Below, piece after piece: positions 5,324 to 11,172 of a stretch of 64,000 bases of DNA. A program made the translations under genes and the position numbers. The notes below the pieces were generated by a model. It did not search any database, had not been told where the DNA came from, and saw only the letters and a program-made list of their open reading frames with translations. Location: NCBI RefSeq assembly GCF_002854065.1, contig NZ_CP024153.1. The stretch is one strand, 5' to 3'. This DNA comes from Escherichia coli (GTDB taxonomy: Bacteria; Pseudomonadota; Gammaproteobacteria; Enterobacterales; Enterobacteriaceae). How positions within the stretch are numbered: the first letter of the stretch is position 1; each line of letters starts with the position of its first letter.

Positions 5324-5977
5324 ATGATTCAAACACGTAATCAATATCTGCAGTTTATGCTGGTTATACTGGCTGCATGGGGCATTAGTTGGGGAGCCAG
5401 ATTTGTCATGGAGCAGGCCGTTCTGCTTTATGGATCAGGAAAAAACTATTTGTTCTTCAGTCATGGTACTGTTCTGATGTACCTGCTGTGTGTTTTCCTA
5501 GTATACCGCCGTTGGATAGCTCCGCTACCGGTCGTTGGTCAGCTGCGCAACGTTGGCGTACCGTGGCTAGTCGGTGCGATGGCCGTGGTGTATGTCGGTG
5601 TATTTCTGCTCGGTAAGGCGCTGGCTCTGCCTGCTGAGCCATTTATGACGAAACTTTTTGCCGATAAGTCCATACCTGACGTGATCCTGACGTTGCTGAC
5701 CATCTTTATCCTTGCCCCGTTGAATGAGGAAACGCTGTTCCGGGGGATTATGCTGAACGTCTTCCGTTCACGGTACTGCTGGACGATGTGGCTGGGGGCG
5801 CTGATAACGTCGTTGTTGTTCGTCGCCGCGCACAGCCAGTATCAGAACCTGCTGACACTGGCAGAACTGTTCCTAGTGGGGTTGATTACATCAGTGGCCA
5901 GGATCAGAAGTGGTGGCCTGCTGCTGCCGGTATTGCTGCATATGGAAGCAACCACGCTGGGTTTACTGTTTGGTTGA
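5324..5977 (+). CDS. CPBP-family (CAAX/Abi-type) intramembrane metalloprotease
   Basis: 217-aa polytopic membrane protein with EExxFRG and HxxxN/HME motifs typical of CPBP proteases. Confidence 0.7.
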   Translation: MIQTRNQYLQFMLVILAAWGISWGARFVMEQAVLLYGSGKNYLFFSHGTVLMYLLCVFLVYRRWIAPLPVVGQLRNVGVPWLVGAMAVVYVGVFLLGKALALPAEPFMTKLFADKSIPDVILTLLTIFILAPLNEETLFRGIMLNVFRSRYCWTMWLGALITSLLFVAAHSQYQNLLTLAELFLVGLITSVARIRSGGLLLPVLLHMEATTLGLLFG

Positions 5978-6069
5978 AAGTTATATTTTTATTAAACATT
6001 GTGCGTTAAAGCCTGGTGTGTTTTTTTAGTGGATGTTATATTTAAATATAACTTTTATGGAGGTGAAGA

Positions 6070-6327
6070 ATGCATACCACCCGACTGAAGAGGGTTGGCG
6101 GCTCAGTTATGCTGACCGTCCCACCGGCACTGCTGAATGCGCTGTCTCTGGGTACAGATAATGAAGTTGGCATGGTCATTGATAATGGCCGGCTGATTGT
6201 TGAGCCGTACAGACGCCCGCAATATTCACTGGCTGAGCTACTGGCACAGTGTGATCCGAATGCTGAAATATCAGCTGAAGAACGAGAATGGCTGGATGCA
6301 CCGGCGACTGGTCAGGAGGAAATCTGA
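6070..6327 (+). CDS. pemI: PemI antitoxin (MazE/AbrB fold)
   Basis: 85 aa, MHTTRLKRVGGSVMLTVPPALL...; stop overlaps pemK start. Confidence 0.9.
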   Translation: MHTTRLKRVGGSVMLTVPPALLNALSLGTDNEVGMVIDNGRLIVEPYRRPQYSLAELLAQCDPNAEISAEEREWLDAPATGQEEI

Positions 6328-6328
6328 C

Positions 6329-6661
6329 ATGGAAAGAGGGGAAATCTGGCTTGTCTCGCTTGATCCTACCGCAGGTCATGAGCAGCAGGGAACGCGGCCG
6401 GTGCTGATTGTCACACCGGCGGCCTTTAATCGCGTGACCCGCCTGCCTGTTGTTGTGCCCGTAACCAGCGGAGGCAATTTTGCCCGTACTGCCGGCTTTG
6501 CGGTGTCGTTGGATGGTGTTGGCATACGTACCACAGGTGTTGTACGTTGCGATCAACCCCGGACAATTGATATGAAAGCACGGGGCGGAAAACGACTCGA
6601 ACGGGTTCCGGAGACTATCATGAACGAAGTTCTTGGCCGCCTGTCCACTATTCTGACTTGA
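6329..6661 (+). CDS. pemK: PemK endoribonuclease toxin (MazF family)
   Basis: MERGEIWLVSLDPTAGHEQQGTRPVLIV... 110 aa; the listed ORF start at 6197 is an upstream in-frame extension. Confidence 0.9.
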   Translation: MERGEIWLVSLDPTAGHEQQGTRPVLIVTPAAFNRVTRLPVVVPVTSGGNFARTAGFAVSLDGVGIRTTGVVRCDQPRTIDMKARGGKRLERVPETIMNEVLGRLSTILT

Positions 6662-6945
6662 ACATGGGGTTTGAGGGGCAACCGGATGAAAACGTACGAT
6701 TTAGGGCACTAAAACCGCTGTTGTCCCACCATTCTGGTGATTCCCAAACGTTATTTGGCTAAAAAGTAGTTTTGATGTGGTTTATTTTCCGAATTCCAAG
6801 CGCAGCCCTACTTTCTTGTGCGTATTTGCGTGTTTTGCGCAGTTTTGAAGTTCCTACATCAGATTGACTTCGGATACAAATTCAATGAACATTGATGCAA
6901 ATACTGACCTATCAGTTTCTTAACTAAATACTCGAGATACATCTA

Positions 6946-8718
6946 ATGGCTAATGAAAACTTAGATATTGACTCCAAGACAGCAGAAGAATTATACGAGT
7001 GGTATCTGGATGATAAATTAATTATAAATCGAAGATACCAAAGAAAATTAGTATGGTCCCTCGAAGAGAAAACAGCACTGATTTCATCAATGACTCAGCA
7101 ATACCCTATCCCTTTGCTATTGTTTGTTTCCATTGACAACAAAAGAGAAATCCTTGATGGAATGCAAAGACTAGAAGCTTTAATGAGTTTTATTGAGCAG
7201 CGATTTTCATTAAATGGTAAATACTTTAATTTAGATGCCATTGCATTAACAAAACAACTAAAAGACAGTGGTAAACTTCAACAAAAAGAGCCAGTGCTAT
7301 CCCGCGAAAGTTCTACATTAATTGCTCGCTATAGATTTGCTATATCTGAATACTCTTCAACAGAGGACCACATTGACGAAGTGTTTCGACGCATAAATTC
7401 CAATGGTAAAATTTTATCAAAACAAGAACTACGAAGTGCGGGGTGCGTTAGTAATTTTTCAGAGTTAGTAAGGAAAATATCGACAATTATAAGAGGAGAT
7501 ACTACACATAGCGATATAATGGGACTGAATAAAATACATAACATATCAATTTGCAATGATGGACTCGATTATGGAATAAATATAGACAATCATTTCTATA
7601 TTAGAAATCATATCATTAGTAGGCCTAGCATTAGAGACTCTGACGATGAAGAGTTAGTTGCAAATATCTTGGGCTATATATTTTTAGATGATAAGCCAAC
7701 ATCAGGATCAACATCGCTCGATACATTTTACGGTGAAGGTTCGACGAGTCATGCAATCCATACACGAACTCAATTAGAGAATTACATTCAGACAAATGGT
7801 GCAGATAAAATTGTCAATAATTACCTCTTCGTTTATGAGATGATTCAAAAATTATTTGATGCAAATAATTTGAACTTTAGATCACACATTCTGGGCAATG
7901 CATCTTCATCTCAAGAATGTCCTCGTTACTATCAAGCTGTTTTTCTTGCTTTGTATGAATTAATCATAAATGAAAACATGCAACTTGACGATGAACAGAA
8001 ATTTATCGCTCAGTTAGGAGACAGTGTACAACGTTCAATGGTGCAAACCGAAGGGGGCCGTTGGGCAGCTAGCGCTCGTCAGAAAAGTGTCGAAGATTTA
8101 TGTGCTTTAATCAGACGATATTTTAAAGAATCAGAAAATAAATTTATCAATCATGCTTGGCAAACACTGATAAGAACTCTACTTAATAACTCAAGAACAG
8201 AACAACCAAATTATGATTTTAAACAGGGATTATTTATTCTCTCAGGCGAGAATAAAATAGACGAAGAATGTTTCATTAATATAGTCCAAACGGCTGTCGC
8301 CATAAATAACATCGGTAGAGAATCTAATGGTTATATTTTAGTTGGTGTTTCCGATACCAAAGCTACGGCAGACAGAGTTAAGGCTTTATATGGTGTTACC
8401 CCTATTGAGTGCAATGGCTATTATATCAATGGAATTGATCATGAAGCTGTAATTCAATCAAAAAACATAGATAATTACTTTCTGTTCATAAAACAAAAAA
8501 TAGAATCATTTAATTTTAATGAGGCTTTGAAACAACAAATACTAAAAGATATTTCATTATGTTCATATGAAGGACTGCATGTTTTAAAAATCGAAATAAA
8601 AAGTGTCGGAGAAGTCTGTCATTTTGAAAATAGGTATTATATAAGACAAGGAACAGCTACACATTTAATCACTGACGGTGAAGCAATTAGTAGTTTACAC
8701 AGATTATATTACTCATAA
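6946..8718 (+). CDS. DUF262 (ParB-like nuclease superfamily) domain protein, 590 aa; candidate defence gene
   Basis: N-terminal RRYQRKLVWSLEEK ... ILDGMQRLEAL (DGQQR-type motif); about 30% GC versus about 50% flanks; C-terminal half uncharacterised. Confidence 0.75.
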   Translation: MANENLDIDSKTAEELYEWYLDDKLIINRRYQRKLVWSLEEKTALISSMTQQYPIPLLLFVSIDNKREILDGMQRLEALMSFIEQRFSLNGKYFNLDAIALTKQLKDSGKLQQKEPVLSRESSTLIARYRFAISEYSSTEDHIDEVFRRINSNGKILSKQELRSAGCVSNFSELVRKISTIIRGDTTHSDIMGLNKIHNISICNDGLDYGINIDNHFYIRNHIISRPSIRDSDDEELVANILGYIFLDDKPTSGSTSLDTFYGEGSTSHAIHTRTQLENYIQTNGADKIVNNYLFVYEMIQKLFDANNLNFRSHILGNASSSQECPRYYQAVFLALYELIINENMQLDDEQKFIAQLGDSVQRSMVQTEGGRWAASARQKSVEDLCALIRRYFKESENKFINHAWQTLIRTLLNNSRTEQPNYDFKQGLFILSGENKIDEECFINIVQTAVAINNIGRESNGYILVGVSDTKATADRVKALYGVTPIECNGYYINGIDHEAVIQSKNIDNYFLFIKQKIESFNFNEALKQQILKDISLCSYEGLHVLKIEIKSVGEVCHFENRYYIRQGTATHLITDGEAISSLHRLYYS

Positions 8719-8727
8719 TTACTTAAG

Positions 8728-8768
8728 CACTATGAAGGTATCATACACCTTCATAGTGTACTTTTTTA
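8728..8768 (+). terminator. Rho-independent terminator downstream of the DUF262 gene
   Basis: Perfect 12-bp stem cactatgaaggt...accttcatagtg with 7-nt loop, followed by a T-run. Confidence 0.8.
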
Positions 8769-8921
8769 CTGCGCTTTGGGGCTAAATTGTTTTTGTGAAT
8801 AGCCAGAATATCGTGGCTACGGCGGCAATGGAAATATATGGTCTCTGCTGCCAGAGACTGGAGATGTAATTGGGGTCAGTTTGGATATCGAAAATTATTG
8901 TACTATAAGGGGTCCGCTTGA

Positions 8922-8959
8922 GGGGGCCGCTTGGAAAACGGAAATTTTCCCACGCTAAG
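8922..8959 (+). repeat. Orphan 38-bp Tn3-family terminal inverted repeat
   Basis: gggggccgcttggaaaacggaaattttcccacgctaag; preceded by a 13-bp partial copy of its own start (8909-8921). Confidence 0.65.
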
Positions 8960-9399
8960 AGAATTGAGTTGAACGAGTGGTTACATCTAGGCCAGCTAAC
9001 TCACTGAACGTAAAGGCTGTACGAAATGTTCCGACCGTCCGATAACCATTTGGCTTACTTCCGTACATTTCCTTGCGTAGATGTACAGAATTGTACGATT
9101 TCGGACACCAAAACTGCTGTTGTCACGGTGCATGAAGCCACTTTCCGGGTTGGTGGTACTGACTTTGGTGTTCTTAACGACGACGTTTTCAACTCTGAAA
9201 ATCGCCTCTCTGCACGGGGGTTTTTACCCCCCCATAGAGCCGTCATATAAATTCAAATTATTAACTTTGATGGTAGAATTATCTTAGGTTTGATAAAATT
9301 TTGAGCCGTCGCCGTTTACTTCACAGGATTCAATATAATGGCTAAATATACAGTTTGTGATTACCAATCAACTATTAGGGGGCACCTCAGAAAACGGAA

Positions 9400-10726
9400 T
9401 CTATGGTCACTCCCGTTTTTGCAACACCGATTTTGACGATAAATTGGCTTGCTTGAATCTATCCGGCGTCTGAATGGGATTTTATTCCCGCGCCTCGATG
9501 AGTTCCGCGCCTGATGAACCTCCAGAAAATATACGGCTTCAATGAGCCTTTCCGTTTTACAGGTTCCTCAACAGGCCGGTGGGCCGTTAGTATCATCAAT
9601 ATCAGTATTCGCAAAACCAGATCAGTGATTCTTTAAACCGGTGTATTTCTGCCGTTATGCTACATAAGTTTGCTGTCGTGCCGTTAGGGCCCAGGCTATT
9701 CTGGCCAGCTTGTTTGCCAGAGCACAAGTGACGACAAAGTTGCTTTTCCTACACAGTAGATCCCTGACCCAATCGGCCAATTTGCCAGACTGGTGTTCCA
9801 GTTTTTGTATGAATACCCTGGCACATTGAACCAACAAAGTTCGGATCTTTTTGTTACCTCGCTTACTAATTCCCAGCAATGTCGTCCGACCTCCCGTGCT
9901 GTACTGTCGAGGCACTAGCCCTGTTGCCGCCGCAAAGTCACGACTGCTGGCGTACTGCTTCCCGTCGCCAATCTCAGTTGAAATAGTACTCGCTGTCAGT
10001 GTTCCGACGCAGGGAATGCTCAGCAAGCGCTGTCCAATCTCATCTTCGTCCAACTTTCGTTTCAACTGGGATTCCAAATCTTTAATCTGCTCAACAAGAT
10101 AGTGATAATGCTGTTGTAATTTCAGCAATAACTGGCTGAGGTATAGAGGCAAACTATTGTCCTCAAGAAGGGTACTCAGTCGGCTAATAACGGCAGCTCC
10201 TCGTGGAACGCTGATGCCAAATTCCAGCAGAAAAGCATGCATCTGATTGGTTGTTTTTACCTTATCCTGAACCAGGGATTCACGGACACGATGCAGCGCA
10301 CGCATTGCCTGCTGAGATTCAGTTCTGGGCTGTACAAAACGCATAGACGGACGCGATGCAGCTTCACAAATAGCTTCGGCGTCGACAAAGTCGTTTTTGT
10401 TACTTTTAACGAATGGACGGACAAATTGTGGTGATATCAGCTTAGGAAAATGCCCCAACTCTTCCAACTTGCGTGCCATAAAGTGAGAGCCACCACAGGC
10501 TTCCATTGCGATGGTTGTAGCGGGGCATGTCGCCAAAAATTCGATTAACTTTGGCCGTGTAAATTTTTTACGGTAAACAGCCTTGCCGCGACGATCTTGG
10601 CAATGAATATGGAAAGAGTTTTTACCCAGATCGATACCAATGAGCGCAATGTTTTCCATGATAGTTCTCCGAATGAAAGCCTATCCTCAGCATAGTACCG
10701 GGAAGGAGGGAGTGACCATCTCATTA
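9400..10726 (-). mobile_element. IS5075/IS4321-like (IS110 family) inserted in Tn21 IRmer
   Basis: 1327-bp element at the IR position these ISs target; second copy at 50461-51787. Confidence 0.85.
9655..10659 (-). CDS. IS110-family transposase (IS5075-type)
   Basis: 334-aa MENIALIGIDLGKNSFHIHCQD... DEDD-type N-terminus. Confidence 0.85.
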   Translation of the reverse strand: MENIALIGIDLGKNSFHIHCQDRRGKAVYRKKFTRPKLIEFLATCPATTIAMEACGGSHFMARKLEELGHFPKLISPQFVRPFVKSNKNDFVDAEAICEAASRPSMRFVQPRTESQQAMRALHRVRESLVQDKVKTTNQMHAFLLEFGISVPRGAAVISRLSTLLEDNSLPLYLSQLLLKLQQHYHYLVEQIKDLESQLKRKLDEDEIGQRLLSIPCVGTLTASTISTEIGDGKQYASSRDFAAATGLVPRQYSTGGRTTLLGISKRGNKKIRTLLVQCARVFIQKLEHQSGKLADWVRDLLCRKSNFVVTCALANKLARIAWALTARQQTYVA

Positions 10727-10737
10727 AATAAAGCACG

Positions 10738-11172
10738 CTAAGGCATAGCTGACCTTGCCAGGCCTGCTTCGCCCTGTAGTGACGCGATCAACGGGCAGGA
10801 AACATTCCCCTTTCGTGCATGGCAGGCGCACACGAGTTCAGACAGCACGGTTTCCATGCGCGCCAAGTCGGCCATCTTCTCGCGCACGTCCTTGAGCTTG
10901 TGTTCGGCCAGGCTGCTGGCCTCCTCGCAGTGGGTGCCATCGTCGAGCCGCAACAGCTCGGCAATCTCGTCCAGACTGAACCCCAGCCGCTGTGCCGATT
11001 TCACGAATTTCACCCGAACCACGTCCGCCTCCCCATAGCGGCGGATGCTGCCGTAAGGCTTGTCCGGTTCCCGCAACAGGCCCTTGCGCTGATAGAAGCG
11101 GATTGTCTCCACGTTGACCCCGGCCGCCTTGGCAAAAACGCCAATGGTCAGGTTTTCCAAATTATTTTCCAT
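10738..11172 (-). CDS. merR: MerR mercury-responsive regulator
   Basis: 144 aa [33 protein letters not shown]...; divergent from merT. Confidence 0.95.

Follow-up and report, generated by a model that had tools for sequence, protein, structure and literature searches.

What does a solitary, AT-rich gene behind the toxin-antitoxin pair pemIK do for the Escherichia coli that carries it? The gene is a 590-residue open reading frame (ORF) at positions 6946-8718 (+ strand) of a 64,000-nucleotide (nt) stretch of E. coli DNA (contig NZ_CP024153.1, assembly GCF_002854065.1), the whole of which is called the window here. The region is 100% identical at the DNA level to plasmid p14EC007b, in which the coding sequence at the same position is WP_001262766.1 (tblastn of the window protein against that record likewise gave 100%), named in RefSeq 'GmrSD restriction endonuclease domain-containing' and otherwise labelled only 'DUF262' or 'GmrSD domain'. 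An earlier sequence-only reading had delimited the ORF exactly and had proposed a lone candidate defence gene gained by horizontal transfer, and the analysis presented here upholds that proposal. We consider it likely that the gene is a self-contained single-protein anti-phage immune system, belonging to the prokaryotic Schlafen nucleases (pSlfns) and having the DUF262-Slfn architecture.

Domain architecture and conserved residues

The search with profile hidden Markov models that had been suggested as a check was run against Pfam and PADLOC. Pfam placed GmrSD_N/DUF262 (PF03235) at residues 26-165 (E value 2e-19) and SLFN_AlbA_2 at residues 420-573 (E value 3.6e-5), and neither DUF1524/GmrSD_C (PF07510) nor HNH matched the protein even at E<=10. 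The PADLOC matches cover the DUF262 part: the NsnA profile aligns with residues 10-341 (E value 9e-22) over profile positions 50-323 of 385 only, the protein having a Schlafen domain in addition, and the PD-T4-2_A profile aligns with residues 14-179 (E value 1e-18), that is, with the DUF262 domain only. The motifs from which the sequence-only reading had deduced a DUF262 N-terminus and a faintly AlbA_2/Schlafen-like C-terminus lacking DUF1524/HNH are all present (RRYQRKLVW at residues 29-37, ILDGMQRLEAL at 69-79 and NGYILVGVSD at 461-470), and each of these deductions agrees with the profile matches.

Domain searches and the AlphaFold model together show a three-module anatomy in which the predicted nucleoside triphosphate (NTP)-binding motifs and the predicted Schlafen active site are intact. 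The first module is a DUF262/GmrSD_N ParB/sulfiredoxin-like NTPase domain (residues 26-165; 7021-7440, + strand) with its DGMQR motif at 7156-7170. It is followed by an all-helical middle domain (residues ~190-410; 7513-8175, + strand) with a presumed linker or regulatory role, delimited from the AlphaFold model (predicted local distance difference test scores mostly 85-95), the NsnA profile and the literature. A conserved helical domain is found downstream of DUF262 in NsnA, DndB, GmrSD and SspE (Menshen paper, PMC12065111), and residues ~190-410 correspond to this domain of other DUF262 defence proteins. The third module is a Schlafen/AlbA_2 nuclease domain (residues ~415-590; 8188-8715, + strand), with E419-x4-D424-x-K426 encoded at 8200-8223.

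An alignment of 88 homologues, reaching down to 25-30% identity, showed that the signature residues of these modules are retained throughout the family. In the DUF262 domain, Y31-Q32-R33, D71-G72-x-Q74-R75 and F147, R149, N151, G154, S158 and R163 of the FxRxNxxGxxLS region are invariant or nearly so; R183, D234 and E235 are invariant, the helical domain spanning residues ~190-410. In the C-terminal domain, E419 (88/88), D/E424 (87/88) and K426 (88/88) form an E-x4-(D/E)-x-K motif, and N455, G467, D/E470, E/D500 and R567 are also conserved. The alignment contains no invariant histidine.

Fold comparison gave BrxU and SspE as structural matches for the N-terminal half and a Schlafen fold for the C-terminus, where the Foldseek matches include SLFN13, SLFN14 and the SAMD9 tRNase domain, the latter deposited as such in the PDB (9o0d). 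With the alignment cut down to the C-terminal domain, 24 of 30 family members matched SLFN_AlbA_2 at E<=1e-3. In sequence searches of the PDB, the single window protein had no match, the full-family profile matched only BrxU (7p9k) and the C-terminal profile retrieved nothing significant; because none of these searches gave a Schlafen match, the Schlafen assignment is based on Pfam together with the catalytic motif and the fold comparison. Below significance, the C-terminal profile weakly matched a PDB chain named 'CbCash' (9ylu; E value 0.3) over the AiaNt..GyliiGV.D segment, and this entry may be another bacterial Schlafen-like structure.

A HMMER search of 1.84 billion cluster representatives found 243 clusters at E<1e-30, almost all of 580-620 residues and colinear over the full length. 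Because these clusters are colinear and of nearly equal length, DUF262-Schlafen appears to be a family of fixed architecture and not a chance fusion. The family ranges from Proteobacteria to Firmicutes and Planctomycetes. It is present in full length as PHROG 26759, which links it to phages; GenBank phage genomes gave no tblastn match, and NCBIfam has no family for the window protein.

Class assignment and proposed mode of action

A recent survey catalogued 5,930 pSlfns, defined by the motif Ex4(E/D)xK, and classed them by the domain to which the nuclease is fused, DUF262 fusions making up 1.8% (Perez Taboada et al., Nat Microbiol 2026; PMC13056530). One of these, EcoSlfn7 of E. coli UC4224, protected against a broad range of phages, most strongly against T7, the plating of which it reduced 538-fold (PMC13056530). 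The window protein has every sequence-level feature of the DUF262-Slfn class, namely the predicted Schlafen/AlbA_2 fold, the Ex4(E/D)xK motif and a DUF262 domain in the same chain. DUF262-Slfn is thus an already known class, catalogued and with one validated E. coli member, of which the window gene is a further member, and the earlier statement that the protein could not be placed in a described defence family no longer stands. Neither the RefSeq accession nor 'DUF262 + AlbA_2' retrieved any paper in literature searches.

The better known systems that resemble parts of the protein were considered and rejected as its family: GmrSD on account of the missing DUF1524/HNH, Menshen (NsnABC) because genes for the NsnB ATPase and NsnC occur neither next to the window gene nor beside the 11 homologues whose neighbourhoods were examined, and PD-T4-2 because it is a multi-gene system, the present cassette consisting of a single ORF that the PD-T4-2_A profile matches in the DUF262 domain only. 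Of the likeness to GmrSD, BrxU and SspE that the sequence-only reading had pointed out, the part concerning the sensor domain remains valid; the effector is a Schlafen-type nuclease and not a His-Me DNase.

Two lines of published work suggest how such a protein might function. BrxU/GmrSD and SspE bind and hydrolyse nucleotides and thereby link recognition to the licensing of the nuclease (PMC12065111), and a 2026 report on SspE presents its GTP hydrolysis as an allosteric switch (PMC13251355). Among the pSlfns, mechanistic work has addressed the class with an Ig-like sensor, the DUF262 class not having been dissected: RorSlfn5 is activated by the T5 tail-assembly chaperone, cleaves tRNA anticodon arms and forms higher-order oligomers (PMC13056530). 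By analogy, the DUF262 and helical modules would act as an NTP-dependent sensor and switch, as in BrxU/GmrSD and SspE, and would hold the nuclease off until an infection cue appears, for which phage DNA, a phage protein or a change in the nucleotide pool are candidates. The Schlafen domain would then be activated, probably after oligomerisation, because it has a single lobe, the cores of eukaryotic Schlafens being two-lobed and RorSlfn5 oligomeric. Once active, it would cut RNA, most likely tRNAs, as do SLFN11/13, SAMD9 and RorSlfn5, and the ensuing shutdown of translation would reduce or abort phage production.

The alternative that survives best, although we judge it unlikely, is a GmrSD-like type IV restriction enzyme in which AlbA_2 takes the place of DUF1524, the DUF262 domain recognises modified or foreign DNA and the C-terminus cuts DNA. 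Every mechanistically studied DUF262 defence protein (GmrSD, BrxU and SspE) does sense and cut DNA (PMC12065111). The structural matches of the N-terminal half to BrxU and SspE as well as the RefSeq name point the same way, but the family has neither DUF1524/HNH nor an invariant histidine, its conserved acidic and lysine residues form the motif of Schlafen ribonucleases, and the counterpart domain of SAMD9 was deposited as a tRNase. Moreover, EcoSlfn7 is strongest against T7, whose DNA is unmodified, which argues against a strictly modification-dependent sensor. For these reasons we prefer the Schlafen-type, RNA-cutting immune protein.

Solitary homologues on mobile elements

The neighbourhoods of the 11 homologues revealed no conserved neighbour gene, the full-length homologues being solitary in the contexts examined. 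Several reside in P2-like prophages: homologues from Pantoea (L002, 78% protein identity) and from a metagenome (L010, 87% protein identity) lie between the portal gene Q and the replication gene A, and a variant found in 28 E. coli chromosomes (L009, 69% nucleotide identity) lies between the baseplate gene V and gene S. In phage P2, the Q/A junction (old, tin) and the S/V junction (orf30) are classical non-essential 'moron' sites and hotspots of anti-phage genes, and we take the Q/A and V/S positions of the homologues to be these sites. The two positions go with two sub-lineages, the 78-87% variants (L002 and L010) at Q/A and the 68-69% variants at V/S in L009. A Cronobacter homologue (L003, 69% protein identity) has an integrase and the remnant of P2 tail genes as neighbours; on this prophage remnant it abuts the S and R tail genes.

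Outside prophages, a Vibrio homologue (57% protein identity) occupies an integrase-bounded island and a Eubacterium homologue (39%) the edge of a mobile element, whilst homologues on an enterobacterial metagenome contig (L011, 81%), in Chromobacterium (39%) and in Burkholderia (39%) are solitary between housekeeping genes, and an Aeromonas homologue (55%) is solitary next to recBCD. A further full-length family member (L014, 35.6% protein identity; WP_004200842.1, NZ_CP132225.1, 58304-60067) is carried by a Klebsiella-type IncFIB/FII plasmid, next to a TIR-domain protein gene and near a Lit-family phage exclusion gene, with a GNAT/DUF1778 toxin-antitoxin pair also among its neighbours; this neighbourhood resembles a defence island carried on a plasmid. 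Such contexts, namely moron sites of prophages, islands with an integrase, a plasmid island and solitary insertions, are typical of defence genes, and the cassette travels as a moron among P2-like prophages, genomic islands and plasmids. With the 87% variant as query, complete E. coli genomes gave matches at 80-90% identity only, which are the plasmid-type gene itself, and in the search for a third E. coli variant the 81% variant gave no match.

Cassette borders, composition and control signals

Alignment by BLASTN of the plasmid copy with the closest prophage copy (L010) gave 79.6% identity over 1955 nt, bounded exactly by positions 6818 and 8768. Because DNA homology ends at both bounds, the stretch 6818-8768 (+ strand), which comprises an upstream control region, the ORF and a terminator, can be regarded as a transferable, mobile single-gene cassette. 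Its guanine-plus-cytosine (GC) content is 0.334. For the ORF itself the value is 0.333, against 0.524 for the whole window, 0.515 for the left and 0.478 for the right flank; the dip described by the sequence-only reading is therefore real and sharp, although the reading's figure of about 30% was slightly low. The separate terminator claimed for the gene was also found, as an intrinsic terminator at 8727-8768 (+ strand) whose hairpin (8727-8759) has a 13-bp stem and a 7-nt loop and is followed by a T run. The hairpin is kept in the prophage copy L010, and in the chromosomal copy L011 the pairing is retained through compensatory changes.

The cassette probably has its own promoter as well. The block GATTGACTTC, identical in the plasmid and P2-prophage copies despite diverged surroundings, contains the -35-like hexamer TTGACT (6864-6869, + strand), with a weak -10 partner, GAACAT, at 6887-6892; the promoter is only putative because a consensus scan gave no call there. 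The terminator scan found no terminator between pemK and the DUF262-Schlafen gene, and therefore read-through from pemIK is possible.

These features bear on the possibility, to our minds improbable, that the gene is an intact but silent passenger, an AT-rich moron that is silenced or unexpressed in the plasmid context and has no current phenotype. A GC content of 33% in a 52% background, the lack of a strong promoter call and the repeated disruption of other copies by Tn2, IS1 and ISKpn26 would suit such a passenger, but thousands of public assemblies (4,803 index blocks) have kept the 590-residue sequence unchanged, the ORF, its catalytic residues, the conserved upstream block and the terminator are all intact in the window, and purifying conservation across phyla implies that the family itself is functional. 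The family is plainly under selection; the passenger reading could apply to expression in this particular plasmid context.

Plasmid context and recurrent truncation

On plasmids, the exact protein is always found behind a block of CAAX protease, pemI and pemK genes, and the downstream sequence is variable. In the window, pemI (6070-6327) and pemK (6329-6661), both on the + strand, belong to an IncFII plasmid backbone, as annotated in the identical region of p14EC007b (IncFIA/FIB/R, with an IncFII repA beside the gene), where the order is repA, CAAX protease, pemI, pemK, WP_001262766.1, IS4321 and Tn21 mer. The gene for the CAAX-type (Rce1-like) membrane protease together with pemI-pemK, at 5324-6661, formed a constant upstream block in every plasmid context examined. 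The ORF starts 284 bp downstream of pemK, directly downstream of pemIK as had been claimed, but a functional link was rejected, given that pemIK is absent at all non-plasmid homologues examined; because homologues elsewhere lack pemIK, the closeness of the pair to the gene is ascribed to the plasmid backbone, and the pair is not part of the system.

The orphan inverted repeat (IR) noted about 200 bp further on was likewise recovered: a solitary 38-bp Tn21-family-like IR (GGGGGCCGCTTGGAAAACGGAAATTTTCCCACGCTAAG) lies at 8922-8959, 204 bp past the stop codon, is identical to the Tn21 IR at 29 of 38 positions and has no partner elsewhere in the window. It belongs to the IncFII backbone, because other plasmids (L022, L023) have the stretch 8719-9378 joined without a break to stbAB-type backbone. 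The window's homology with plasmid L018 ends at 8920, and in that plasmid an IS4321/IS5075-like insertion sequence (IS) follows directly, as expected because such elements target such IRs. Tn21 was inserted into the backbone at 9378/9379. Its mer-end IR (GGGGGCACCTCAGAAAACGGAA) begins at 9379 and has IS4321 (transposase 9655-10659, - strand) inserted into it, merR and merT following from about 10738; the region was noted as 9379-10740.

Intact copies are the minority. Among the 72,556 plasmids of PLSDB, 1,484 had a protein-level match and only 145 matched over at least 80%; of 5,426 complete E. coli genomes, 823 had some match, 132 covered at least 80% of the gene and 102 had an intact mid-gene junction. 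About 90% of the plasmids carrying the gene have a disrupted copy, typically by Tn2. The recurrent truncation point (gene nt 1276-1284, residues 426-428) corresponds to 8221-8229 and is intact in the window. Most E. coli and plasmid records retain either only nt 1-1284 (residues 1-428; hundreds of records, for example ST131-type plasmids and pKSR100) or only nt 1276-1773 (residues 426-590; hundreds of records, many of them Klebsiella plasmids), the two fragment types overlapping by the 9 nt of 1276-1284. In pKSR100, the break abuts a Tn2-type segment with blaTEM-1. The break falls directly after K426, and what is commonly met on IncF plasmids as a 'DUF262 protein' is therefore devoid of the nuclease fold. 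For one truncated form the annotation reads 'AlbA family DNA-binding domain-containing protein'. The copy in the window is the uninterrupted and presumably ancestral form.

Independent IS insertions were also seen, in copies H26 (NZ_CP061532.1), H29 (NZ_CP176408.1) and, in E. coli chromosomes, H63, H86 and H87, the elements being ISKpn26 and IS1B on plasmids and IS1B in the P2-prophage variant; they suggest recurrent inactivation, possibly through a fitness cost.

A plasmid-selfish role (post-segregational killing, exclusion of competing plasmids or incoming DNA, or AlbA-type DNA-binding regulation of plasmid genes), for which the invariable position behind repA, the CAAX protease and pemIK, the missing terminator after pemK and the AlbA annotation of the truncated form could be adduced, is very improbable, since close homologues (69-87% identity) sit at P2-like prophage moron sites and in chromosomal islands with no plasmid genes nearby, the approximately 90% of carrier plasmids that have fragments only are nonetheless successful conjugative plasmids, and so strict a conservation of the nuclease motif speaks against a regulator that does no more than bind DNA.

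Weight of the evidence and implications

Several observations weigh against an anti-phage function of the window gene. In the published survey, only two of the seven tested Enterobacterales pSlfn systems were protective, 30% of pSlfn genes have no defence neighbourhood around them and may serve other purposes, and tRNA cleavage was shown only for the pSlfn class with an Ig-like sensor (PMC13056530). The window allele also differs from EcoSlfn7 in being plasmid-borne, in the IncFII backbone beside pemIK, and known from sequence alone; the source strain UC4224 did not appear among the 28 P2-type E. coli records, all of which were listed, or among the roughly 85 listed records out of 104 intact plasmid-type ones. 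Because about nine tenths of the carrier plasmids have a disrupted copy, the gene is often dispensable or costly on plasmids. The consensus scan found no strong sigma-70 promoter 5' of the gene, and at 33% GC the gene could be silenced by H-NS in its native context. Taken together with the architecture, the class assignment and the genomic contexts, these points leave a single-protein immune system the likely function.

To our knowledge, the only role so far assigned to the DUF262 module is that of an NTP switch which senses DNA or its modification and licenses DNases, and we know of no ParB-fold protein in which such a sensor is coupled to the destruction of tRNA. A more speculative extension, which we put forward as possible but doubtful, is that DUF262 may gate an RNA-cutting Schlafen domain, a foreign-DNA or nucleotide-pool signal leading to tRNA destruction, and that on IncF plasmids a host-protecting immune gene of the backbone is being lost to resistance transposons. 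If this were true, a plasmid losing the gene to the insertion of a resistance transposon would trade phage immunity for drug resistance.

The analysis proposes a function for a gene that RefSeq labels only by domain and which is present, whole or as a remnant, in about 15% of complete E. coli genomes and on about 1,500 PLSDB plasmids (of E. coli, Klebsiella, Shigella and Salmonella), including epidemic IncF resistance plasmids. Intact copies may change the phage susceptibility of clinical strains, which is relevant to phage therapy, and the copies truncated by Tn2 are natural knock-outs for comparison. The DUF262-Slfn class being validated but mechanistically unstudied, the gene also offers a tractable case of a ParB-like NTP switch that would control a Schlafen nuclease.

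Comparison with known systems

The closest known system is EcoSlfn7, which according to its published description has the same two modules, DUF262 and a Schlafen nuclease, in one polypeptide, as well as the same Ex4(E/D)xK motif, and which shares the host group (Enterobacterales) and the organization as a single gene on mobile elements. RorSlfn5 has in common with the window protein a Schlafen effector with the same catalytic motif and single-gene defence, and is a trigger-activated tRNase. Its nuclease is N-terminal (E15/D20) and is followed by a C-terminal Ig-like sensor that binds the T5 tail-assembly chaperone, whereas the nuclease of the window protein is C-terminal and its predicted sensor is an NTP-binding ParB-like domain.

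Menshen and PD-T4-2, the best PADLOC matches, share the DUF262 domain and, in the case of NsnA only, part of the helical domain; they differ as multi-gene systems and in that NsnA and PD-T4-2_A have no Schlafen domain. With GmrSD, BrxU and SspE the likeness extends to an N-terminal DUF262 with the QR, DGxQR and FxRxNxxGxxLS motifs, a following helical domain and, as far as can be deduced, a sensor-effector logic within one protein governed by an NTP switch. In the window protein, however, the C-terminal DUF1524 His-Me finger DNase of these enzymes is replaced by Schlafen/AlbA_2, and the target is probably RNA instead of modified DNA. Compared with the eukaryotic Schlafens (SLFN11/12/13/14) and SAMD9, the protein has a single AlbA_2 lobe of ~175 residues in place of the two-lobed Slfn core, and neither the SWAVDL linker nor a helicase, the latter being a mark of group III Schlafens. 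What it would share with them is antiviral tRNA cleavage by a nuclease fused to a module that senses nucleic acids or nucleotides, the Schlafen effector fold being one that is also used in human antiviral immunity.

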